Origin: a phage
Direction: 5' to 3' (one strand)
NCBI GenBank assembly: GCA_008273105.1
Contig: GCA_008273105.1_4080.1
Length of the DNA: 64,000 bases
A program made the position numbers and the translations under genes. Of the stretch, positions 13,448-56,432 are shown in pieces. The notes beneath the pieces were generated by a model that did no database searches, had not been told where the DNA came from, and worked only from the letters and a program-made list of their open reading frames with translations. How positions within the stretch are numbered: position 1 is the stretch's first letter; the number at the start of each line of letters is the position of its first letter.

Positions 13448-13924
13448 TTATTTTAGAATGTATAAGTGTTTTTCTGCATTGACCAGTCGGTGATCAATGA
13501 TTTCTTTGATAACGTTCCAGTTACCGCCGCCCAAATCGGCTCCAATTTTCGGGAAGTGTACATGAACATCTCGATCAACTTTACAAAAATAATTTAGATG
13601 TTTGAACACATCGTCGATTGCATCATAACTGACATATTTAGCACCGTCATTACCGTACATTTTTTGGGTAATACAGTTTGCAATAATCAAATTATCGTTA
13701 ATTGCTGAATATGCAATTTGTCCAATTCTAAGAAATCCCATTTCCTTTTCATATGCTTTATAATCATCATATGCCATTGGGTAACGATTTCTTAGCTCTT
13801 TTGCAAAACCTGAACCCATTTTACCCTGTGCGTTACAACCATGAGCAATTATATGTATTGCTGTTTTATCATCTGTTACAGTACTGAATAATTCAAACAG
13901 ATTACCTCGGTGTTCATGAATCAT
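13448..13924 (-). CDS. macrodomain protein, TARG1/OARD1-like (ADP-ribose processing)
   Basis: IIAHGCNAQGKMGSGFAKELRNRYP and FPKIGADLGGGNWNVI match recalled OARD1 blocks (ISHCISEDCRMGAGIA..., MPRIGCGLDRLQWENV). Confidence 0.65.
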   Translation of the reverse strand: MIHEHRGNLFELFSTVTDDKTAIHIIAHGCNAQGKMGSGFAKELRNRYPMAYDDYKAYEKEMGFLRIGQIAYSAINDNLIIANCITQKMYGNDGAKYVSYDAIDDVFKHLNYFCKVDRDVHVHFPKIGADLGGGNWNVIKEIIDHRLVNAEKHLYILK

Positions 13925-14754: not shown

Positions 14755-15156
14755 TTATTTCCTTCTATTTCTTTGAAAAGCTTTAACAGCTTTAATAATA
14801 CTGTTACACATTCGTTCAGTCAAATACTTTTGACATTCTCGTACATCAATGTACATGAACTTATCCAATTCTGGATGACTCTTACCATATCTATTAGTGT
14901 AAGTACTTTTACAAACTAATTCATCTGGTATTGGTTTGTCTTTGGCAGTATAAAAGAAAAGTACTAACCTTTTTCCCTTTCTATAGGATACATCACCAAG
15001 AAACAGAAGATCATCTTCATCGATTTCGTATCCTGTCTCTTCGAAACATTCACGTACAGCAGCTTCTTTGAAAGTTTCATTACCCTCAGCTTTCCCTTTA
15101 GGTAAATCCCAATGATTCTGTCCGTGTTGTATGTCCGATAAGTATCTGACCATCAC
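14755..15156 (-). CDS. Nudix hydrolase
   Basis: Canonical Nudix box GKAEGNETFKEAAVRECFEETGY. Confidence 0.8.
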   Translation of the reverse strand: MMVRYLSDIQHGQNHWDLPKGKAEGNETFKEAAVRECFEETGYEIDEDDLLFLGDVSYRKGKRLVLFFYTAKDKPIPDELVCKSTYTNRYGKSHPELDKFMYIDVRECQKYLTERMCNSIIKAVKAFQRNRRK

Positions 15157-15264: not shown

Positions 15265-16377
15265 TTAGAACATTTGTTTGATTGCTTCATAACGAAGTTC
15301 ACAAACAAAATCACGAATTTCTGACGTTTCAAGTTCACCATCTTTGACCATTTGCTGAATATCAGGCAATTCAACATCAGTATAACGATCATAAACTTTA
15401 ATAATTAGATCTTCAAGTTCTAAATCAATTTCTTTTCGCAAAATGAAGTATTCCAAAACTTTATAAAGGAATTCTTCACCTCCGTTATTTTTAATATTCA
15501 TATCCAATAAAATATTACCCATTTCAATAGGGGTCTTTTTACGGAATGTTTTGATATCATCACGGAAACGTTTGATATAATTACTAAATTTAACATACTT
15601 AACTGGAACTTTAATAGCACCGTTAAGTACTGAATCATTATTTACTTCTTCATTTTCAAGAAGAATAGACCACAGAAAATATGGTTTATATACATCCGTA
15701 CAGTTCTCTGCAATATAATCAATAAGGTCTAAATTCTTTTTGGTCAAAGATGTATTAAACACCTTTTCGTAATAACCAAATTTACTTAGCGTCTTAAGGA
15801 ACTTTGCAGGCTTTTCTTCGGAAAATGCTTTTTCGAATTCCACAAAAACACGGTCAGGAACAAGATGATTTAGCTCACCACTATTGACCATTCCAATAGC
15901 TAGTTCCTCAGTGCTTTCATGGATAGTAAAGTCTGAATAACGAGTAGCAAATCGAGCAAGACGTAACACACGTAATGGATCTTCTTTAAAATGGTCAGAA
16001 ACATGACGTAGTACCTTGTTCTTGATATCAGCTTTACCACCGTATGGATCAATGTGAATTTGTAGTACTGGATCATACGAAATTGCATTTATTGTTAGGT
16101 CACGGCGATACAAATCTTGTTCGAGTGTTACGCCTTTTGTATCCACTTCAAAGCCACCATATCCAGTACCAGTTTTACGCTCAGTACGGGCTAATGCGTG
16201 TTCATTACCTTCTGGACTTAGATATACAGGGAAATCCTTACCTACTTGCTTATAGCCAATACTTTGCAAGTACTTAATATCAGATTCAGTTGCTCCGACA
16301 ATGACATAATCTTTGTCTTTTGCACGAAGACCCATTAAACGGTCACGGACGTAGCCACCAACCAAATACTTTTTCAT
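15265..16377 (-). CDS. cca: tRNA nucleotidyltransferase (CCA-adding enzyme), head/neck domain only
   Basis: MKKYLVGGYVRDRLMGL...DKDYVIVG...ALARTERK...RRDLTINA...EDPLRVLRLARF closely matches class II CCA enzymes; shorter than E. coli Cca. Confidence 0.85.
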   Translation of the reverse strand: MKKYLVGGYVRDRLMGLRAKDKDYVIVGATESDIKYLQSIGYKQVGKDFPVYLSPEGNEHALARTERKTGTGYGGFEVDTKGVTLEQDLYRRDLTINAISYDPVLQIHIDPYGGKADIKNKVLRHVSDHFKEDPLRVLRLARFATRYSDFTIHESTEELAIGMVNSGELNHLVPDRVFVEFEKAFSEEKPAKFLKTLSKFGYYEKVFNTSLTKKNLDLIDYIAENCTDVYKPYFLWSILLENEEVNNDSVLNGAIKVPVKYVKFSNYIKRFRDDIKTFRKKTPIEMGNILLDMNIKNNGGEEFLYKVLEYFILRKEIDLELEDLIIKVYDRYTDVELPDIQQMVKDGELETSEIRDFVCELRYEAIKQMF

Positions 16378-32500: not shown

Positions 32501-34771
32501 TTACTTATACCATTGCATTTCTCTAATATCAATGATAATTTTTGATGCTAACTTGATGTTTGGTTTTTTAGGAAGTACTGATTTCTTATATAGAACATCA
32601 CGAATGTATTGTACTTTATCATCGAAATATTCTAAGACTTCTTCATACTTCCATTTACCATTACGAATATCCATCAACATTTGTGCATCTGGTCGTTTAA
32701 CTTGAATAATTCCACTTTGTAATGCTTCTTCTGCACTATTCAAAAGTCGGATTGTGTGCATAGCATGTTTACAGTTTCCATGTAATGCAGTTTTACCATT
32801 TCTACGAGTAACCAGTGTACCGTTCGGAACTGAAAAACAAACAGTTCTGTAGTTAGTTACTGGAATTTTTTCAAGATTTTGTTTCATGTTTATTTTTTCT
32901 GATTTAGGTTTCATATTGATATGAACTTGATACATTTCAATATAACCAAAATTAGTTTCGTTTGTGTATGGTCCCCATTTCGATGTTTCATAACCGCACA
33001 GTAATGCTAGTTTTTGAACATCATCAGCTAATAATGAATTAGCAGTATAATATACATATGTGTCATCATGATTGACCAAATTACGTTTTGTACCATCACC
33101 TTGCAACAAACCTTTTAGCAGAAAATCCATTTTTCGTTTTGTTAAATCAAATGCCCAATTTGGAATTCTTTTATTATATGATCCATGCCCACAATCATTA
33201 TATAATGCTTCAGCCACTTCACGTGGAAATACAAATCTTGATTCATCATTTGATTGGTAATCTTTTCTTTCGTTAATGTATTCCTGAAATATCATTTGTC
33301 CAGATTGTTTGTATTTTGATAAAGCACAACGCATACCAGGACTGGCTTTTGATTGTGAAATGTATAATGATTTTACTTTTCCATCTCTAAAACTTATACT
33401 ACCATCTGAAAGAAACCATCCCATCAGTTGAAGATAAACTTTGATATCCATATAGTCAATTGGGCTTTTTTTATCTTTATATTCCTTTGTTATTGGAGAT
33501 AATGTATTCAAAATTTTATAAGTTTCTTTTAATTGTGCTGCTTCAACAAATTGCCATTCTGACATATCTTTTTGCTGATTACGTGCATAATTCTTAACAT
33601 ACATTCTGTGATTTGCAGTCACTAACGTATCTTGGTGATGACCAGTGAAATGGTAAAGATTTCCATTGTATAAATTATCAAAACGTTCTGTGTATTTTTG
33701 ATACTCTATTTTGTGATTTTTATCAAAAGTCGCTAATAGATCTTTATCAGTGATGTCGTCAAATAATTTCCAACCATCTTTAGTTAAGAATTCAGTATCA
33801 AAACTATAACAGTCGTATCCGTGTTGTGATTCTAAAATAGCACGTTTGGCATTACGATTTTCTTTCCATTTATGATAACTTTTCCTATTCTCACTATTTT
33901 CCTGATATTCTTTTTCGTTAAATTTGACAATTAGTTCTGGTTTAGTTTTCAACTCTTCAGTACTACGCTCTTTAGAAAAATAACGCAATGATCCATCACC
34001 GTTGATAGTGCTTTCATTCGGATTTTTAATAATCGCAAAAATGTTTTCTCCGTAATGAATTAGTTCATAACCATTATTAAAATTCAATAAATTGAAATCA
34101 CGATCAAGAATTTTTTCAGTAGTGTAGTTATGCACTAATCTTACAAAATGATATTGCTTTAATGGATTTTTCGAAACTAACTGCAATGACGTATCACGCA
34201 TATATTTTTCAAAATCAATCTTTTTAGCATTAAATGGATGTAAGTTGGATGTATCTAAACGTTCAACAAGATACTGTGGGAATGAATCATACATCCACGC
34301 AAGAACCTCATCGACAGGGTGTTCTTCTAAAATCTCATTTAATCGTTTTTCAGCAATACGCTCTTTATCCATCCAACCGTGATGATTTGTCATACGCTTA
34401 ATCTGATTATATGCATATCCAGTGTATGAAAATGCAATCTTGGAACTAAGAAGTTTTTGGTTAAATGAACGAAGATAGTCATAAATCTCAGTACTTTCTA
34501 CAATGTGTTCTGGATCGACCCATAGTGATTCCAATATATTAGGGTTGGCTTCAGTGTATAATTTTAAATACTGATTTAACTCATAGAATTTAGTATCTTC
34601 TTCATTTTTATCAGCTACTTCTTTGACCTTATAGAATGGCGTAAGAATAAATTCTTTATTAGCAAGAAAAATACCACGATAATCAGTATCACTTTCAGGT
34701 GTACTGGTTCCGTAGGCTTGTGACCCAGCCAAGTGTTTCACTATTGTTTGTTCAACATATTGGTTATTCAT
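32501..34771 (-). CDS. Pol-beta-superfamily nucleotidyltransferase interrupted by an intein
   Basis: N-terminal HLAGSQAYGTSTPESDTDYRGIF (GS...SDxD NTase motif); in-frame ~346-aa intein; C-extein CKHAMHTIRLL... Confidence 0.7.
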   Translation of the reverse strand: MNNQYVEQTIVKHLAGSQAYGTSTPESDTDYRGIFLANKEFILTPFYKVKEVADKNEEDTKFYELNQYLKLYTEANPNILESLWVDPEHIVESTEIYDYLRSFNQKLLSSKIAFSYTGYAYNQIKRMTNHHGWMDKERIAEKRLNEILEEHPVDEVLAWMYDSFPQYLVERLDTSNLHPFNAKKIDFEKYMRDTSLQLVSKNPLKQYHFVRLVHNYTTEKILDRDFNLLNFNNGYELIHYGENIFAIIKNPNESTINGDGSLRYFSKERSTEELKTKPELIVKFNEKEYQENSENRKSYHKWKENRNAKRAILESQHGYDCYSFDTEFLTKDGWKLFDDITDKDLLATFDKNHKIEYQKYTERFDNLYNGNLYHFTGHHQDTLVTANHRMYVKNYARNQQKDMSEWQFVEAAQLKETYKILNTLSPITKEYKDKKSPIDYMDIKVYLQLMGWFLSDGSISFRDGKVKSLYISQSKASPGMRCALSKYKQSGQMIFQEYINERKDYQSNDESRFVFPREVAEALYNDCGHGSYNKRIPNWAFDLTKRKMDFLLKGLLQGDGTKRNLVNHDDTYVYYTANSLLADDVQKLALLCGYETSKWGPYTNETNFGYIEMYQVHINMKPKSEKINMKQNLEKIPVTNYRTVCFSVPNGTLVTRRNGKTALHGNCKHAMHTIRLLNSAEEALQSGIIQVKRPDAQMLMDIRNGKWKYEEVLEYFDDKVQYIRDVLYKKSVLPKKPNIKLASKIIIDIREMQWYK
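32774..33811 (-). mobile_element. intein with LAGLIDADG homing endonuclease domain
   Basis: Block A CYSFDTEFLTKDGWK; LAGLIDADG-like LMGWFLSDGSISF and LLKGLLQGDGT; C-terminal ...ALHGN then Cys+1; boundaries approximate. Confidence 0.75.
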
Positions 34772-50837: not shown

Positions 50838-50866
50838 ATAAAAAATCCCTGCCAACAGACAGGGAC
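50838..50866 (-). terminator. rho-independent terminator
   Basis: Stem TCCCTG/CAGGGA, 8-nt loop, T-tract on minus strand. Confidence 0.5.
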
Positions 50867-51226: not shown

Positions 51227-52666
51227 TTACATATTTTCTTCAGCAAATTCTGCAAGTGGTGAACGAACAACACCTTCTAGTTCGATGACACGACAACCTG
51301 CCCAATCTTTAAACTTCTCAGTTACATATGTCAAACCACTGTTAACAGGACTAATAAACTTACTGTCAATCTGACTCAAGTTACCCATAATTACTACTTT
51401 ACAGTTTAATCCTGCTCGTGTCAAGATTGTTTTAGCTTGTGCAGGTGTAATGTTTTGGAATTCATCAACTACTAGAATAGTGTTGGTGAATGAACGTCCA
51501 CGTACAAAGTTTAGTGCTTTAAATTGAATAACATTACGTTTCATAATCTCTTCAATACTACCTTGAGGGTTAGCATCATCTTTATGAAGAAACTCTAACG
51601 CGTCAATTGCGGCTCCACAGAATGGAATCACTTTTTCTGCTTCTGAACCTGGCAAGAAACCAATATCTTCAAACTGTGAGTCTTGAGTTTTAGAGAAGAT
51701 GATTCGGTCGTATTTACGTTTTTCCAGTACTAATTCTAATGCAGTAGCAATCGTAATTAGTGTTTTACCAGTACCAGCAGAACCTAGCAGTACTGTTAGA
51801 TGTACATCAGGATCGAGAATACTGTTGATGGCGAGTGCTTGTTGGATATTCTTTGCTTTAATATCCCATACTTTAGCACGTAAAGCTACTGATTGTCCAA
51901 TATCTTGGAATACCAAAATATCTTCTGGTGTTAGTGTTCCATCATCTTCCTCAATTGCTGATTGACCTTCGTACACAAATAATACGTCTGCATCATCATA
52001 TAGATAATCACCGATGCATAGATTTTGTGGAAGCAAATGTTCAATCAAGCTTTTAGAAATGTAATGATACAAACGACGACCAACTTGTTCGGATTGAATA
52101 TTAGTATTGGTTAAGTTGCTATATACTTCCCAAAAATTAATTTCCAAATGGTGTTGACCAATGTGAATCAAATCACTATCACCAATAACAATATCATGGC
52201 GATAATCTTGTACCTCGACACCATAACTTAGTGCTTTGATACGCATGTTGATATCACGAGTTACCAGTACTGATTCTGTTGCTAAAGCTACCAGAATGAT
52301 TTTATCATCAGGTACTGTGCTTTTGAGAAGGGTTTGAACTTTCTCTTCTGAACCTTTAGTACGAATTAGTGCTTCAGCTTCTTCGTTTGTAATAACAAAC
52401 AATTTGCTATCAGGATTCATATTGGTATGAACATCAGCAATATTAACACCAGTACTACTAATCTCATCATGTGATGCATCTGCAATAATTGCTTCAATGT
52501 TACGAATAGCAACACGAGCATCGCGTGAAACATCTACATTACGACTCTTAATTGAATCCAATTCTTCCAGTACTGTAAATGGTAGAATGATTGCAGCACC
52601 ATCAAAAGCAATAGATGCATTAGGGTCAGATAGTAGTACGTTTGTGTCAATTGTATATTTTTTCAT
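51227..52666 (-). CDS. phoH: PhoH-like ATPase with N-terminal PIN domain (YlaK-type)
   Basis: Walker A LLGSAGTGKT in PhoH-like C-terminal half; N-terminal PIN-like acidic residues. Confidence 0.8.
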   Translation of the reverse strand: MKKYTIDTNVLLSDPNASIAFDGAAIILPFTVLEELDSIKSRNVDVSRDARVAIRNIEAIIADASHDEISSTGVNIADVHTNMNPDSKLFVITNEEAEALIRTKGSEEKVQTLLKSTVPDDKIILVALATESVLVTRDINMRIKALSYGVEVQDYRHDIVIGDSDLIHIGQHHLEINFWEVYSNLTNTNIQSEQVGRRLYHYISKSLIEHLLPQNLCIGDYLYDDADVLFVYEGQSAIEEDDGTLTPEDILVFQDIGQSVALRAKVWDIKAKNIQQALAINSILDPDVHLTVLLGSAGTGKTLITIATALELVLEKRKYDRIIFSKTQDSQFEDIGFLPGSEAEKVIPFCGAAIDALEFLHKDDANPQGSIEEIMKRNVIQFKALNFVRGRSFTNTILVVDEFQNITPAQAKTILTRAGLNCKVVIMGNLSQIDSKFISPVNSGLTYVTEKFKDWAGCRVIELEGVVRSPLAEFAEENM

Positions 52667-52726: not shown

Positions 52727-53029
52727 TTACATATTTGGTTCGTATTCAACATAGCAACGTGAACCTCGAACCTTTTCTTCCCAGCACTCCTGGTAAACAA
52801 GTTGACCAATTGAAACTGGTTCTCTTGATAGTCCATTACGTACTTCACCACTTTGGGTTTTATACATAAATGAACATTTGGACTCGCTACATTGTCCTAA
52901 ACTAACAACTTCTGCGGTATTGTAGTGAATGTTGGTACGCTTAGTGTTCTCGTGATACTGTCCGAACCAAAGAACTCCTGCACCTAACAGAACAGTACAA
53001 ATAAGACTTTTGATGTGTGTTTGAATCAT
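52727..53029 (-). CDS. small secreted/membrane Cys-containing protein
   Basis: 100 aa, N-terminal hydrophobic signal-like segment. Confidence 0.5.
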   Translation of the reverse strand: MIQTHIKSLICTVLLGAGVLWFGQYHENTKRTNIHYNTAEVVSLGQCSESKCSFMYKTQSGEVRNGLSREPVSIGQLVYQECWEEKVRGSRCYVEYEPNM

Positions 53030-53346
53030 AATGAGTTAAATCCATTGTTTAAGTATGTTTCAATATTAATTTTACCAACAGGATTACTACTGTGAACAAA
53101 GTACTCAAACGGTTCTTTAATATTATTATCAAACATATAATCAATAAGAAACTTAGCAAAAGAATATCCAGTCTTTTCGTCTTCGCTCACATCACCCAAG
53201 TCATGGTCGAATGATACAAATGCTGGAATTCCATTTTCAATAACATATTCACATGCACTTTTAAAGTCACGACATACCACCATATCTTGGTTTGGATAAT
53301 ATAGATTTGCATCACGAATATCATCCAAAAACATTGAGTAAGACAT
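53026..53346 (-). CDS. hypothetical protein
   Basis: 106-aa ORF. Confidence 0.5.
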   Translation of the reverse strand: MSYSMFLDDIRDANLYYPNQDMVVCRDFKSACEYVIENGIPAFVSFDHDLGDVSEDEKTGYSFAKFLIDYMFDNNIKEPFEYFVHSSNPVGKINIETYLNNGFNSL

Positions 53347-53355
53347 GTTAAACTC

Positions 53356-53907
53356 CTATAGATAACTAATTAGTAAGTTTTCTTTTTGAACCAGATACTC
53401 CAATTCTTGTTTTGCTGTACCGATGAAGTTCTGTGTCATAAGATTATTATATCCCGCTTCTCGATTTTGTCCCTTAGAATAACGCGAAATATGACATAAA
53501 TTTACACCAGCAACTTCTGCACTTGCATGTTTAGCATTAGTGTATCCATCTCTAATGTGTTTCAACTCGTCATAGGTTACTTCATAGCTAAAACTGTGAC
53601 TGTTTGCACCTGGGTAAATTTCAAAAGTTTTGAGTGGTCGAAGATGGGAAACAAAAATATTGTAATCCATTTCTTCTTGAACTTCACGACGCAACGCATC
53701 TTCTAGTGAGATATCAGTACTTTCTACGGTTCCACCACATCCACCAAGAAGACCATCCCATCGTAATTGCAGTAATACTAAATTTACTTCTGGTATATCA
53801 TTCAACTCATAGTTTTTGTAAGGGTTGCATTTTCTTGCAAAGAAATAACAAAATACAAAATTTGCACGTGTGCCATATTCACCAAAGGGAACTTCTTTAA
53901 CACTCAT
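53356..53907 (-). CDS. Nudix-like hydrolase (non-canonical spacing)
   Basis: GGCGGTVE...DALRREVQEE: REVxEE core present but the following Gly is absent and spacing is longer. Confidence 0.45.
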   Translation of the reverse strand: MSVKEVPFGEYGTRANFVFCYFFARKCNPYKNYELNDIPEVNLVLLQLRWDGLLGGCGGTVESTDISLEDALRREVQEEMDYNIFVSHLRPLKTFEIYPGANSHSFSYEVTYDELKHIRDGYTNAKHASAEVAGVNLCHISRYSKGQNREAGYNNLMTQNFIGTAKQELEYLVQKENLLISYL

Positions 53908-54662
53908 TTCATACGTTCCTTAATTATAGTCTCTAGATGCGGTATTGCTTTGGTTGCTGGCTTGATAACTTTTTCATTAAACAAAAAATCATTATCATTT
54001 TTACGAATGTTAACATTAACACTATAACATGGTAATGCTGCTGCTAATCTCGACCATACCAGTACTGTATCGCTACTACCAATTACAATAACTGTATCAT
54101 TTTCATTAAGAGATTTCAACACATTATTTCGTTCTTCGTAAATTGGTAAGCGAATACCATCAACATAACGATGATATTCTCCAATCATTACTACATTTGG
54201 TTTGGCAAAAACATCATGTTTTGGTATGTATGGTTCGTATCCGCAGTTAATAACATTATAATCATCAGAATTGATACTATAATTTTCAATAACTTCACAC
54301 AAGTTTCCATGAAGTTTAAGCTCATGACCACCAATACGAGTATAAAGATCGTCCATGTTAGAAGTCATATGAAGGAAGCAATCACCATATTGATCTTCTA
54401 ACGATTTTATAAAATAATGCATTGCATTTGGTTCGCATTGTCCCAATTTTACACGTAATGTATTATAGAAAGAATGAACAACATGATATTTTGTAGTTAA
54501 ACTAGCAATGTTACATACATCATTAATTTTAAATGTATCCCACAAACCATCATCAAATCGAAAAGGTTCCATACCACTTTCAACAGAAAGTCCTGCACCT
54601 GATATAATCAGTAATCGCTTTTTACCTTCATTGCTTATAAATTTTTCTGATATCATATTCAA
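53904..54662 (-). CDS. SIR2-family (sirtuin-like) NAD-dependent protein
   Basis: ISGAGLSVESGMEPFR, TSNMDDLY...LHG (catalytic His), KPNVVMIGE, VIGSSDTV match recalled CobB/Sir2 blocks. Confidence 0.75.
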   Translation of the reverse strand: MNMISEKFISNEGKKRLLIISGAGLSVESGMEPFRFDDGLWDTFKINDVCNIASLTTKYHVVHSFYNTLRVKLGQCEPNAMHYFIKSLEDQYGDCFLHMTSNMDDLYTRIGGHELKLHGNLCEVIENYSINSDDYNVINCGYEPYIPKHDVFAKPNVVMIGEYHRYVDGIRLPIYEERNNVLKSLNENDTVIVIGSSDTVLVWSRLAAALPCYSVNVNIRKNDNDFLFNEKVIKPATKAIPHLETIIKERMK

Positions 54663-54665
54663 TCC

Positions 54666-54860
54666 TTATAAAAAAACAATTAAATATATTGATAATAACA
54701 GAATGATTCCAATATGATAGGCATACATAAAATTATTATCTTTGTGATAACCATTGGATTTCAAGTCCCTATATAAGCATTTAGCATTGTTATAAATTAC
54801 AACAATAGAAAAAACTATAAAAAAACTCAAAACCCATTCATAAATTGTGTATGCCATCAT
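54666..54860 (-). CDS. small membrane protein
   Basis: 64 aa, two hydrophobic helices. Confidence 0.4.
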   Translation of the reverse strand: MMAYTIYEWVLSFFIVFSIVVIYNNAKCLYRDLKSNGYHKDNNFMYAYHIGIILLLSIYLIVFL

Positions 54861-54887
54861 CTATTCTCTCTTATAATATTAGTACTT

Positions 54888-55481
54888 TTAATATTTTAAA
54901 ACATCAAACTCTTCGCTTACGCTTGTTACATTATCACTAACAATTTTAAAAATTGATTTGATACGTTCGTGTAGTGGTTTTTTAGATTCGTTCTCAACTT
55001 CAATATATGCTTGCATTGCTGCAATTGCATGATATGTCCCACTACCTACTGCGGTAATTCTTGTTTTAGGTTGTAGTACTGAAAAGTCTTCTTGAACTTC
55101 ATAGATTGTATGATTGTGGAGAATGATAAATTGTCCACCACCTACATCTTGTGATGCATCTCGTGCACCCCATTCTTCTTTAAACATTTGACGAATGATT
55201 GGAATAACTTTAAGAACCAAATATTGTGAAAATGTTTGACTAGCATCTTGTTCAGGTAAATTAAGGTTATAATTTAACAACTGACCCATACGAAATGATG
55301 TAGTATAACCCAATGCCATTACTTCTTTAGTTCTAGTTAGTCCATCATCATGTAACTTGATAAATTCTTTCTCGAATACCTTTGGCTCAGTTTGAACAGT
55401 TTTTGTAAATCCATTGCTTCCTAACTTATCCCCAGCAATAAAAGAACTTACTCCGTCAGTGTGTGCAATAATACAGGTCAT
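54888..55481 (-). CDS. HslV/proteasome-like Ntn hydrolase
   Basis: From internal Met: MTCIIAHTDGVSSFIAGD... and V(L)QP...ITAVGSGTYHAIAAMQA align with recalled HslV; GGAG RBS and ATGA overlap support start at 55481. Confidence 0.6.
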   Translation of the reverse strand: MTCIIAHTDGVSSFIAGDKLGSNGFTKTVQTEPKVFEKEFIKLHDDGLTRTKEVMALGYTTSFRMGQLLNYNLNLPEQDASQTFSQYLVLKVIPIIRQMFKEEWGARDASQDVGGGQFIILHNHTIYEVQEDFSVLQPKTRITAVGSGTYHAIAAMQAYIEVENESKKPLHERIKSIFKIVSDNVTSVSEEFDVLKY

Positions 55482-55738
55482 AAAATAGCTCCAATTGCAA
55501 ATAATGTTGTGTATAAGATATAAATTAGTGCTCCTAACAACATTAGGCACACCAAGTATGAAGTTGATAGTACATAATAAATTATTGCTTCGAATTTTGA
55601 ATTGAACTTCATTGTAGTTGGATCAATAAAGCCATTACGATAATCTTTGTAAATGAAAACTGTTAGAAAAATAACTGTAGCATACATTACTACAGTAGCA
55701 TAAAAAATAATAGATGTCAAGTTTTGGATGTTTGTCAT
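55478..55738 (-). CDS. small multi-helix membrane protein
   Basis: 86 aa, three hydrophobic segments. Confidence 0.45.
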   Translation of the reverse strand: MTNIQNLTSIIFYATVVMYATVIFLTVFIYKDYRNGFIDPTTMKFNSKFEAIIYYVLSTSYLVCLMLLGALIYILYTTLFAIGAIL

Positions 55739-55808: not shown

Positions 55809-56417
55809 TTATTGTTTGACTGAACCGTAAAAAACCAGTTCTGGTTTTGTTAATATTACAACATCTTCACCACGAGAACGACTAACTCTAAATAGAACTT
55901 CTGGTGGGATTCCATTTGCTGCATATAGTGAAAAAAGGAAACCTACCTTTGTTGCCATTTCTTCGGTAAAAGTTGATAGCTGTCTTACAGACACAAATGA
56001 ATTATCACCATCAGTAACATTACTTTTAATCGAAATGTTATGAAGACCCAGTACTGAGCGATTTGTCATATATCGCTTTTCGGGAGATACACTAAAGAAT
56101 ACCACAGTACATGCTGAATTGCAATACCTAGAAACAATTAAATTTATCCCATTGTCTCTAACAAAGTTTGCCATTCGAATACCTGCATCAAAATCACCAC
56201 CAGGAGATGTAATTGTGATGGTATCATAGTGTTCTTTATCATACAACTCTATCATTCTCTTGAGTGACCCATCTGTAATATCTGATATGAAATATACATT
56301 TCGGGTTTCAGGATTATACTTTATCACATTTTTACTTTCAATACCAGCACTGGCTGGAAAATTTATTAACAATAGAAACATCGCTGCTTGTATCACTTCA
56401 AGCCATAGTCTTTTCAT
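55809..56417 (-). CDS. secreted ClpP/crotonase-fold serine-protease-like protein
   Basis: Signal peptide MKRLWLEVIQAAMFLLLINFPASA; ITSPGGDFDAGIRM, NSAC and LGLHN align with ClpP active-site blocks; GAGGA RBS before Met6. Confidence 0.55.
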   Translation of the reverse strand: MKRLWLEVIQAAMFLLLINFPASAGIESKNVIKYNPETRNVYFISDITDGSLKRMIELYDKEHYDTITITSPGGDFDAGIRMANFVRDNGINLIVSRYCNSACTVVFFSVSPEKRYMTNRSVLGLHNISIKSNVTDGDNSFVSVRQLSTFTEEMATKVGFLFSLYAANGIPPEVLFRVSRSRGEDVVILTKPELVFYGSVKQ

Positions 56418-56432
56418 ATAACAAGTCCTCAA

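Follow-up and report, generated by a model that had tools for sequence, protein, structure and literature searches.

The stretch of phage DNA analyzed here (NCBI GenBank assembly GCA_008273105.1, contig GCA_008273105.1_4080.1), which at its full length of 64,000 nucleotides is referred to as the window, encodes a sirtuin (Sir2) and, overlapping its 3' end, a Nudix hydrolase. This gene pair, which had been picked out from the letters alone (the sequence-only reading), belongs to a block that extends past it to a cREC protein, a membrane protein, and a PIN-PhoH2 protein. Every gene in the 53- to 55-kb stretch is on the minus strand. From upstream to downstream, the five genes of the block are as follows.

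53904..54656, minus strand: sirtuin (Sir2) of the zinc-less phage clade, 250 amino acids (aa) (Pfam SIR2, CobB-like fold, conserved H116)
53356..53907, minus strand: NUDT16-family Nudix hydrolase, 183 aa (Pfam Nudt16-like; start overlaps the Sir2 stop, ATGA)
53026..53346, minus strand: cREC (cyclic-phosphate-processing receiver-like) protein, 106 aa (Pfam cREC_REC, PF20274; E = 1.5e-22, 80.5 bits, cutoff 27)
52727..53029, minus strand: small membrane-anchored protein, 100 aa (PHROG 14661 “membrane protein,” E = 4e-44; its start codon shares an ATGA with the stop codon of cREC)
51227..52666, minus strand: PIN + PhoH (PhoH2-type) RNA helicase/nuclease, 479 aa (Pfam PIN_4, E = 7e-20; PhoH, E = 7e-44)

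A megablast search with positions 53000 to 55000 matched 33 phage records, 18 of them at 99% identity or higher. The latter include Escherichia phages G17, Sharanji, phAPEC6, PBECO4, SP27, and 121Q, which are jumbo myoviruses of the genus Asteriusvirus with genomes of ~350 kb, and the window is 99.7% identical to published members of this genus (PBECO4, 121Q, and G17). The matching GenBank records label the sirtuin gene “Sir2 (NAD-dependent deacetylase)” or “cobB” and the partner gene “nudix hydrolase,” and more than 30 GenBank genomes carry annotations for the pair. The neighborhood has been interpreted in print as well: Iyer, Burroughs, Anantharaman & Aravind (Viruses 2022; PMC9503650, section 3.7.3) described a sirtuin-centered “RNA repair” neighborhood of jumbo phages with Serratia phage BF as its prototype. 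With the phage known, the genes annotated, and their surroundings interpreted, the gene pair is real, correctly described, and ordinary; it is already known, and the window adds nothing to what public records and the comparative study of 2022 already contain.

Counted from its first TTG, the sirtuin open reading frame (ORF) would span positions 53904-54662, where the sequence-only reading had placed sirtuin blocks including the catalytic His. The ATG at 54656 is the likelier start, because an AAGGA Shine-Dalgarno sequence lies 6 nucleotides upstream of it and because the same start is used in the RefSeq record of PBECO4, whose equivalent protein is gp095. The sirtuin blocks are borne out by the Pfam SIR2 profile (PF02146), which matches over positions 1-178 of 180 with E = 3.7e-20 and 73.1 bits (cutoff 24), and by PHROG 2162 “Sir2” (E = 2e-77). 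By sequence, the best solved relative is Escherichia coli CobB (E ~1e-22); Archaeoglobus Sir2 and SIRT5 are also among the best. An AlphaFold2 model built with 27 homologs as input has a predicted local distance difference test (pLDDT) score of 91.7 and a CobB-like sirtuin fold; the top 50 Foldseek matches to it are all sirtuins, with CobB the best at template modeling (TM) scores of 0.77 (query normalized) and 0.86 (target normalized). H116 (ATG numbering, in the motif LKLHGN) aligns with the catalytic His of CobB and is invariant in 27 of 27 close homologs and 79 of 79 viral ones. The cofactor motifs G20-A21-G22, S27-G28, F32-R33, N100, and D102 are invariant or nearly so in the same two sets, Y64 and R68 are invariant, and the FGE-type loop is present; the Gln of the sirtuin TQNxD motif is Ser99 in the window protein. 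Given that the catalytic and nicotinamide adenine dinucleotide (NAD+)-binding residues are all intact and invariant, this protein would be expected to cleave NAD+ with formation of an ADP-ribose derivative; the NAD-binding motifs and all arguments about the pocket are judged from alignments. The ratio of nonsynonymous to synonymous substitution rates (dN/dS), calculated here and below against phage TH47 (78% nucleotide identity), is 0.034 for the sirtuin gene, which indicates strong purifying selection.

Two departures from this pattern were seen in related phages. In Klebsiella phage RaK2 (locus L005, 4264-5001), the sirtuin has GNG in place of GAG, and its cofactor loop is without the F-R and G-L-W residues, while N100, D102, and H116 are still there; its NAD+ binding may be altered. 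In one metagenomic contig (IMGVR_UViG_2030936005_000022; L028, L038, and L121), Sir2 appears as two overlapping ORFs, which may reflect a pseudogene with a frameshift or else a fault in the assembly.

On these alignments, the cofactor side of the sirtuin is seen as intact and its substrate side as remodeled. Where classical members have a four-cysteine zinc module, the window protein has two nonconserved Cys residues; 14 of the 27 close homologs have none and the others 1 or 2, and 70 of the 79 viral homologs have 0 to 2, compared with 4 in CobB. The CobB motif V-A-T-P is replaced by a clade signature, V47-C48-N49-I50, in which C48 corresponds to CobB A76, a position that, according to the titles of the Protein Data Bank (PDB) entries topping the fold search, is mutated in engineered CobB acyl-selectivity variants. 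A conserved G139-Y140 in the small domain is a further clade signature, an invariant W201 is found where classical sirtuins carry the G-x-V-x-P peptide-binding strand, and a six-residue insertion after the FGE-type loop is specific to Rak2-like phages. Of the Y-x-x-R motif with which the class III desuccinylase-type sirtuins SIRT5 and CobB bind an anionic acyl group, the Tyr is present as Y64 (CobB Y92), whereas the Arg position (CobB R95) is Leu67, followed by the invariant R68; sirtuins of T5-, rV5-, and KVP40-type phages (60 of the 79) do have Arg at position 67. The V-C-N-I and G-Y motifs, the invariant Trp, which comes after the GSS motif, and the missing Cys tetrad are common to the sirtuins of RaK2, BF, KVP40, T5-like phages, rV5, and phAPEC8; together with the cREC, Nudix, and PIN-PhoH genes downstream, they place the window protein in the zinc-less “distinct clade” of PMC9503650. 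In all, it shares with CobB and SIRT5 the Rossmann fold, the NAD+ motifs, and the catalytic His but is only ~28-33% identical to CobB and is without the zinc Cys tetrad.

Three other assignments were examined. A defense-type SIR2 NADase (as in ThsA, DSR1/2, SIR2-HerA, or SIR2-pAgo) can be ruled out, since PADLOC SIR2 effector models gave nothing at E ≤ 0.01 and a scan of the flanking genes found no HerA, TIR, pAgo, or SLOG partner that could serve as a sensor. A CobB ortholog is ruled out as well: the NCBIfam CobB equivalogs NF001755 and NF040867 score 93 and 85 bits against cutoffs of 318 and 320, and the zinc-binding cysteines are gone. The protein is a sirtuin by both profile and fold, and the PTS_2-RNA domain of Tpt1/KptA, which has the ADP-ribosyltransferase fold, was not found in it.

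Class III/U sirtuins act by default as deacylases. The protein might be an ordinary CobB-like NAD+-dependent lysine deacylase that resets the host or phage acyl-proteome, with the Nudix and cREC proteins destroying the resulting O-acyl-ADP-ribose or ADP-ribose. The best sequence and fold matches (CobB, Sir2Af, and SIRT5) agree with this explanation, as do the retained catalytic His, N100/D102, FGE-type loop, Y64, and R68 and the fact that NUDT16 binds ADP-ribose (PDB 5W6X, among the Foldseek matches). We nevertheless consider it unlikely: the scores of 85 to 93 bits are far below the CobB equivalog cutoffs, neither the zinc-binding cysteines nor the peptide-binding G-x-V-x-P is retained, the recurrent neighbors of the clade (see below) are RNA-end rather than protein-modifying enzymes, and a cyclic-phosphate esterase would have no obvious role on O-acyl-ADP-ribose.

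The Nudix protein belongs to the NUDT16 family. It matches Pfam Nudt16-like (PF22327) with E = 8.1e-19 and 68.6 bits (cutoff 27), compared with E = 4.9e-7 for the generic NUDIX profile, and phrog_9999 with E = 1e-90; among solved structures, human NUDT16 and X29 of Xenopus are its relatives (E ~3e-12). The REVQEE core that the sequence-only reading had called Nudix-like (R74-E75-V76-Q77-E78-E79) is part of the catalytic Nudix helix, GGTVESTDISLEDALRREVQEE, which aligns without gaps to human NUDT16, with RELREE (R75-E80) opposite REVQEE. The structural model has a pLDDT of 93, and the top 39 Foldseek matches to it are all NUDT16, X29, or TIRR (E from 2e-14 to 4e-11), the next Nudix family following at E = 2e-7. 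The likeness to human NUDT16 and X29 extends to the fold (TM ~0.75-0.8) and to equivalents of R50, D52, E76, E79, E80, and E136, even though sequence identity is ~24-27%; R49, E75, E78, E79, and E131 of the phage protein (human R50, E76, E79, E80, and E136) are near-invariant across 150 family representatives. For both proteins of the pair, then, the Pfam thresholds are exceeded and the catalytic residues are present on alignment. The further suggestion that the Nudix partner is a putative ADP-ribose pyrophosphatase is reasonable, as the NUDT16 family has ADP-ribose complexes and hydrolyzes ADP-ribose conjugates (PMC6582358).

A difference from animal NUDT16 is found at Gln170, which reads hypoxanthine there and corresponds to Glu168 in the window protein. 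Among the 150 best representatives listed, 24 are gapped at this position, and the 126 that are aligned have Glu in 110 cases and Gln in 8. Glu is therefore the family norm, and a phage-specific specificity switch from Gln170 to Glu can be ruled out. At E ≤ 1e-3, the Nudt16-like family has 476 representatives among 1.84 billion; fused members include one with Ham1/ITPase, two with HD_4, and one with a cytidylyltransferase-like (NMNAT-type) domain (P0086, P0090, P0138, and P0173).

The genes of the block are tightly packed. The stop codon of Sir2 and the start codon of the Nudix gene overlap in an ATGA (...CGT ATG AAA TGA GTG...), as noticed in the sequence-only reading; the cREC gene starts 9 nucleotides past the Nudix stop, with a GGAG Shine-Dalgarno sequence that overlaps this stop; and PIN-PhoH2 begins 60 nucleotides downstream of the membrane-protein gene. 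From Sir2 to the membrane-protein gene, each stop codon overlaps the next start codon or lies close to it, and from this spacing and overlap the block is probably co-transcribed. In the cREC protein, the alignment shows no variation at the acidic residues D8, D9, D47, and D49. The 100-aa membrane protein has a hydrophobic N-terminal segment and 4 Cys residues, and a gene annotated as a membrane protein is found between cREC and PhoH2 in PBECO4 and phage BF as well. PIN-PhoH2 scores 152 bits with NCBIfam PhoH2, below the equivalog cutoff, and closes the block in every Rak2-like locus whose contig covers that part. All five genes have dN/dS values between 0.03 and 0.13 (Nudix, 0.13; cREC, 0.10; membrane protein, 0.13; PIN-PhoH2, 0.066).

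The two genes of the pair differ in their distribution. A tblastn search with the Nudix protein found 75 phage records; among those listed, nearly all are Rak2-like jumbo phages (345-385 kb) or fragments thereof, from the Asteriusvirus, RaK2/K64-1, BF, fHe-Yen9-04, GAP32, CBB, Munch, and XbC2 lineages, except for a handful of weak matches in Aeromonas phages at ~28% identity. The sirtuin search found 975 phage records, which include Rak2-like, T5-like, rV5-like, phAPEC8-like, and KVP40-like phages. Loci were scanned with small hidden Markov models (HMMs) built from verified proteins, and in 15 of 15 distinct IMG/VR loci that have the Nudix gene, the order is Sir2, Nudt16-like, cREC, and PIN/PhoH2. 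This order outlasts insertions (e.g., in L013 and L016-L019), and in phages of the BF, GAP32, and CBB types, the Nudix and cREC domains form a single polypeptide, as a Pfam check indicates.

These observations bear on the possibility that the genes are functionally independent early genes held together by inherited synteny, with the Nudix protein serving as a sanitizer of inosine di- or triphosphates or as an RNA 5'-end decapper, perhaps feeding the PIN-PhoH2 RNase. Animal NUDT16/X29 decaps RNA, U8 snoRNA included, and animal NUDT16 is also a (d)IDP hydrolase (PDB 2XSQ, with inosine monophosphate, is among the Foldseek matches), and the fusions to Ham1/ITPase and HD_4 would suit such a role. 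Further, of the 150 best representatives, the 17 longest were examined and include no Sir2-Nudt16 fusion, and Sir2 and the Nudt16-like gene each mostly occur without the other. However, the ATGA overlap and the 9-nucleotide spacing point to coupled translation, the gene order survives insertions, and the fusion with cREC ties the Nudix domain at least to cyclic-phosphate chemistry, so that full independence seems improbable to us.

A second scan covered 80 IMG/VR viral loci centered on the sirtuin. The Rak2-like block of Sir2, Nudt16, cREC, and PhoH2 accounts for 15 of them. In 24 T5-like loci, Sir2 is followed by a HAD_SAK_2 “Swiss-army-knife RNA repair” phosphatase (Pfam check), and in ~11 loci, it is found in several orders with co-directional genes for a calcineurin-type phosphoesterase, an Rnl1-type RNA ligase, cREC, and polynucleotide kinase. 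Two unrelated contigs have NAMPT directly upstream of Sir2, and in 27 loci nothing was recognized by the HMMs used. Thus, the Sir2-Nudt16 pairing is specific to one lineage, whereas the association of the clade sirtuin with RNA-end enzymes recurs in at least three. The sequence-only reading had proposed that the phage manipulates NAD+/ADP-ribose pools of its host during infection or that proteins are modified or demodified. This context does not specifically favor either: PADLOC models are unmatched, CobB cutoffs are missed, the zinc cysteines are absent, and the clade resides in RNA-end cassettes.

There is also a link with NAD+ salvage. Apart from Asteriusvirus, all Rak2-like lineages have genes for NatV (NMNAT-Nudix) and NAMPT directly upstream of the block; a 2H protein also precedes it in those lineages, the RaK2 type excepted. 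NAMPT with NMNAT-Nudix (NatV) constitutes NARP2, a validated counter-defense pair (summarized in PMC13464706). The gene for the 2H protein, also called “RNA ligase” (L004 3507-3953 in Serratia phage BF, with equivalents in L016-L027), exceeds the Pfam threshold for the anti-CBASS protein Acb1, with 56 bits against 27, and because of this match the neighbors of the block in related phages may be counter-defense rather than RNA-repair genes. The two contigs with NAMPT immediately upstream of the clade sirtuin (L162 and L168, of 120 kb and 44 kb) are outside the Rak2-like group, and one of them has NatV too; they tie the phage sirtuin to NAD+ salvage a second time, independently of the first.

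The block might accordingly be seen as part of a counter-defense or NAD+ economy island, in which the Nudix and cREC proteins would degrade NAD+-derived immune signals or recycle ADP-ribose, converting what host NADases release into AMP and ribose phosphate for NAD+ resynthesis, while the sirtuin would modify or consume a host factor or signal. Its position behind the NARP2 pair in all other Rak2-like phages and behind the Acb1-threshold 2H protein in nearly all of them, the contigs L162 and L168, and the Nudt16-like representative fused to an NMNAT-type domain are in line with this idea. On the other hand, an NAD+ consumer is an odd partner for NAD+ restoration, and no sequence relation to defense SIR2 NADases was found with PADLOC. 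Moreover, Asteriusvirus keeps the block, yet no NAMPT, NatV, or Acb1-like gene turned up in the window, among the genes annotated at 1-226 kb of PBECO4, or, for the remainder, in a sister genome scanned with HMMs, a negative that is trustworthy for NAMPT and NatV only, as single-sequence HMMs for Rnl1 and PNK missed PBECO4 gp129 and gp125. Within the same scope, the NARP2-type combination of NAMPT with NMNAT was not found in Asteriusvirus either. We regard this explanation as quite unlikely.

The explanation that we tentatively prefer, with limited confidence, is that Sir2, the NUDT16-like Nudix protein, and cREC work together as a single NAD+-dependent “transfer and clean-up” module, with an RNA phosphate as the favored acceptor. 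It builds on the proposals of PMC9503650 that the sirtuin acts like KptA/Tpt1, removing RNA 2'-phosphates, and that its partners resolve cyclic phosphates or degrade ADP-ribose cyclic phosphate. We infer every substrate and reaction step of the module, which might work as follows. The zinc-less sirtuin would use NAD+ on a phosphate of damaged RNA, as Tpt1/KptA does (after Iyer et al. 2022). The RNA 2'-phosphate left once a cyclic-phosphate end has been opened would attack C1'' of NAD+, with departure of nicotinamide, and the ribose 2''-OH, activated by His116, would next attack the phosphate. The cyclic phosphates on the RNA end, on the by-product, or on both would be opened by cREC, and the NUDT16-like enzyme would split the pyrophosphate of ADP-ribose, yielding AMP and ribose phosphate, or trim stalled RNA-phospho-ADP-ribose adducts. 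In the sirtuin mechanism, attack on C1'' is followed by attack by O2''. The Tpt1 reaction (PMC6182162 and PMC7075268) has the same two steps, with C1'' attacked first and the O2'' attack second, and the steps proposed for the phage sirtuin would be chemically parallel to both known pathways. The strongest form of this proposal, namely, that the zinc-less phage sirtuin is not a deacylase but a Tpt1-like RNA 2'-phosphotransferase or an RNA-phosphate ADP-ribosyltransferase, and hence the first sirtuin-fold enzyme acting on nucleic-acid phosphates, is possible but must be called doubtful.

The context counts modestly reinforce the idea of Iyer et al., and the Nudix-cREC fusion in BF-, GAP32-, and CBB-type phages suggests that the two domains share a pathway. 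A precedent exists for the Nudix step, as human NUDT16 strips off the ADP-ribose signal that PARP10 or the human Tpt1 homolog, TRPT1, has placed on RNA phosphate ends (PMC6582358). The block is kept under purifying selection in Asteriusvirus despite the loss of the adjacent NAD+ salvage genes. Consistent with RNA repair, and lending it weak support, are a T4-type polynucleotide kinase and an Rnl1-type ligase encoded 16-18 kb away (PBECO4 gp125 and gp129), a CCA-adding enzyme and an RlaP-like nucleotidyltransferase encoded in the window, and the distribution of KptA homologs, which were found in 98 phage records, none of those listed belonging to a Sir2-bearing lineage.

Several points weigh against the module and its RNA acceptor. 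The closest characterized enzymes by sequence and fold (CobB and SIRT5) are protein deacylases, and Leu67 in the Rak2-like subgroup means that the anion-binding Arg of SIRT5/CobB is lost there. About 900 of the 975 Sir2-bearing phage records are without a Nudt16-like gene, and none of 66 cREC-centered loci from outside the Rak2-like group has a sirtuin within 6 kb; the Sir2-Nudt16 adjacency, being confined to one lineage, may be merely inherited gene order. The RNA ligase and kinase genes are not adjacent to the block in Asteriusvirus, and the T4-type Pnkp/Rnl1 pathway leaves no 2'-phosphate to remove. In the three phages that were compared, the genes flanking KptA have no recognizable domains, so that displacement of KptA by Sir2 at an equivalent position was not shown. 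HAD_SAK and cREC do not count as independent evidence, because their “RNA repair” labels are contextual predictions of the same laboratory; cREC, which was named by these authors in their 2021 jumbo-phage survey (PMC7824862), is experimentally uncharacterized according to them (PMC9503650). Finally, no biochemical or genetic study of a clade phage sirtuin, cREC, or a phage NUDT16-like enzyme was found in the literature that was searched.

Compared with the published BF neighborhood (PMC9503650), to whose proteins those of the window are 44-47% identical, Asteriusvirus has separate rather than fused genes for Nudix and cREC and is without the 2H (Acb1-like) protein and NAMPT/NatV, with HslV-like and ClpP-like peptidases at that site; the membership of the Nudix protein in the NUDT16 family went unremarked there. 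Because these two peptidase genes fill the site that is occupied in other Rak2-like phages by NatV, NAMPT, and nearly always 2H, they suggest an Asteriusvirus-specific replacement. Tpt1/KptA enzymes are also present in large phages that repair RNA, but their ADP-ribosyltransferase fold is unrelated to the Rossmann fold of sirtuins, and the phage sirtuin could therefore be only an analog of Tpt1/KptA, not a homolog. The phage Nudix protein differs from NUDT16 and X29 in being linked or fused to cREC. SirTM-Macro operons, in which an ADP-ribosylating sirtuin is accompanied by a macrodomain eraser, resemble the block in that they combine a sirtuin with an enzyme able to dismantle ADP-ribose adducts. 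However, no adjacent macrodomain is present here, the only Macro-like ORF being 40 kb away and below the Pfam threshold, and the Nudix partner is predicted to cut the pyrophosphate bond, whereas a macrodomain removes the whole ADP-ribose.

The value of the block is as a test case, for its five small genes are clearly delimited and simple to clone. The zinc-less clade sirtuin is carried by ~975 sequenced phages (including T5-like, rV5-like, KVP40-like, and Rak2-like ones), some of which are therapy candidates. Should the RNA-repair interpretation be true, it would mean a new type of substrate or catalytic activity for sirtuins, the first assigned function for cREC, and a second phage route, with a fold unrelated to that of Tpt1, for undoing the damage done by host RNA-cleaving defenses. 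If instead the sirtuin is a deacylase or serves the NAD+ economy, the block would add to the means by which large phages rewire the metabolism of their hosts.

Other features of the window that were mentioned above or that flank the block are the following.

54666..54860, minus strand: hydrophobic ORF of 64 aa, a doubtful gene, directly upstream of Sir2, with its stop inside the Sir2 ribosome-binding region
54888-55481, minus strand: HslV-like peptidase (PHROG 1040; HslV models weak)
55809-56432, minus strand: ClpP/NfeD-like protease (weak Pfam matches)
50845..50866, minus strand: terminator-like hairpin and T-run from a consensus scan, a possible 3' end of the transcription unit
55674-55696: second terminator-like site from the consensus scan, upstream of the HslV-like gene
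13451-13924, minus strand: Macro-like ORF (16 bits, Pfam cutoff 22)
14758-15153, minus strand: second small Nudix protein
15268-16377, minus strand: CCA-adding tRNA nucleotidyltransferase
33809-34771, minus strand: RlaP-like “RNA repair pathway” nucleotidyltransferase (its PBECO4 counterpart has 410 residues, only 321 of which align)

The 64-aa ORF has no family matches, and its identity to TH47 is only 51% over 49 aa; it is called “membrane protein” in some records and is unannotated in PBECO4. Site counts in the consensus scan for promoters and terminators did not exceed those in shuffled controls, and the bracketing of one transcription unit by the hairpins at 55674-55696 and 50845-50866 is for this reason only suggestive. 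No tRNA genes were found in the window. Relative to PBECO4, an indel or replacement is located near 48-49 kb, where the WGR-domain protein gp086 has no counterpart in the window by tblastn. Outside the window, at positions 157841-170100 of PBECO4, there are ten tandem paralogs annotated as “regulator of chromosome condensation” (RCC1-like), encoded on the strand opposite to that of their surroundings.

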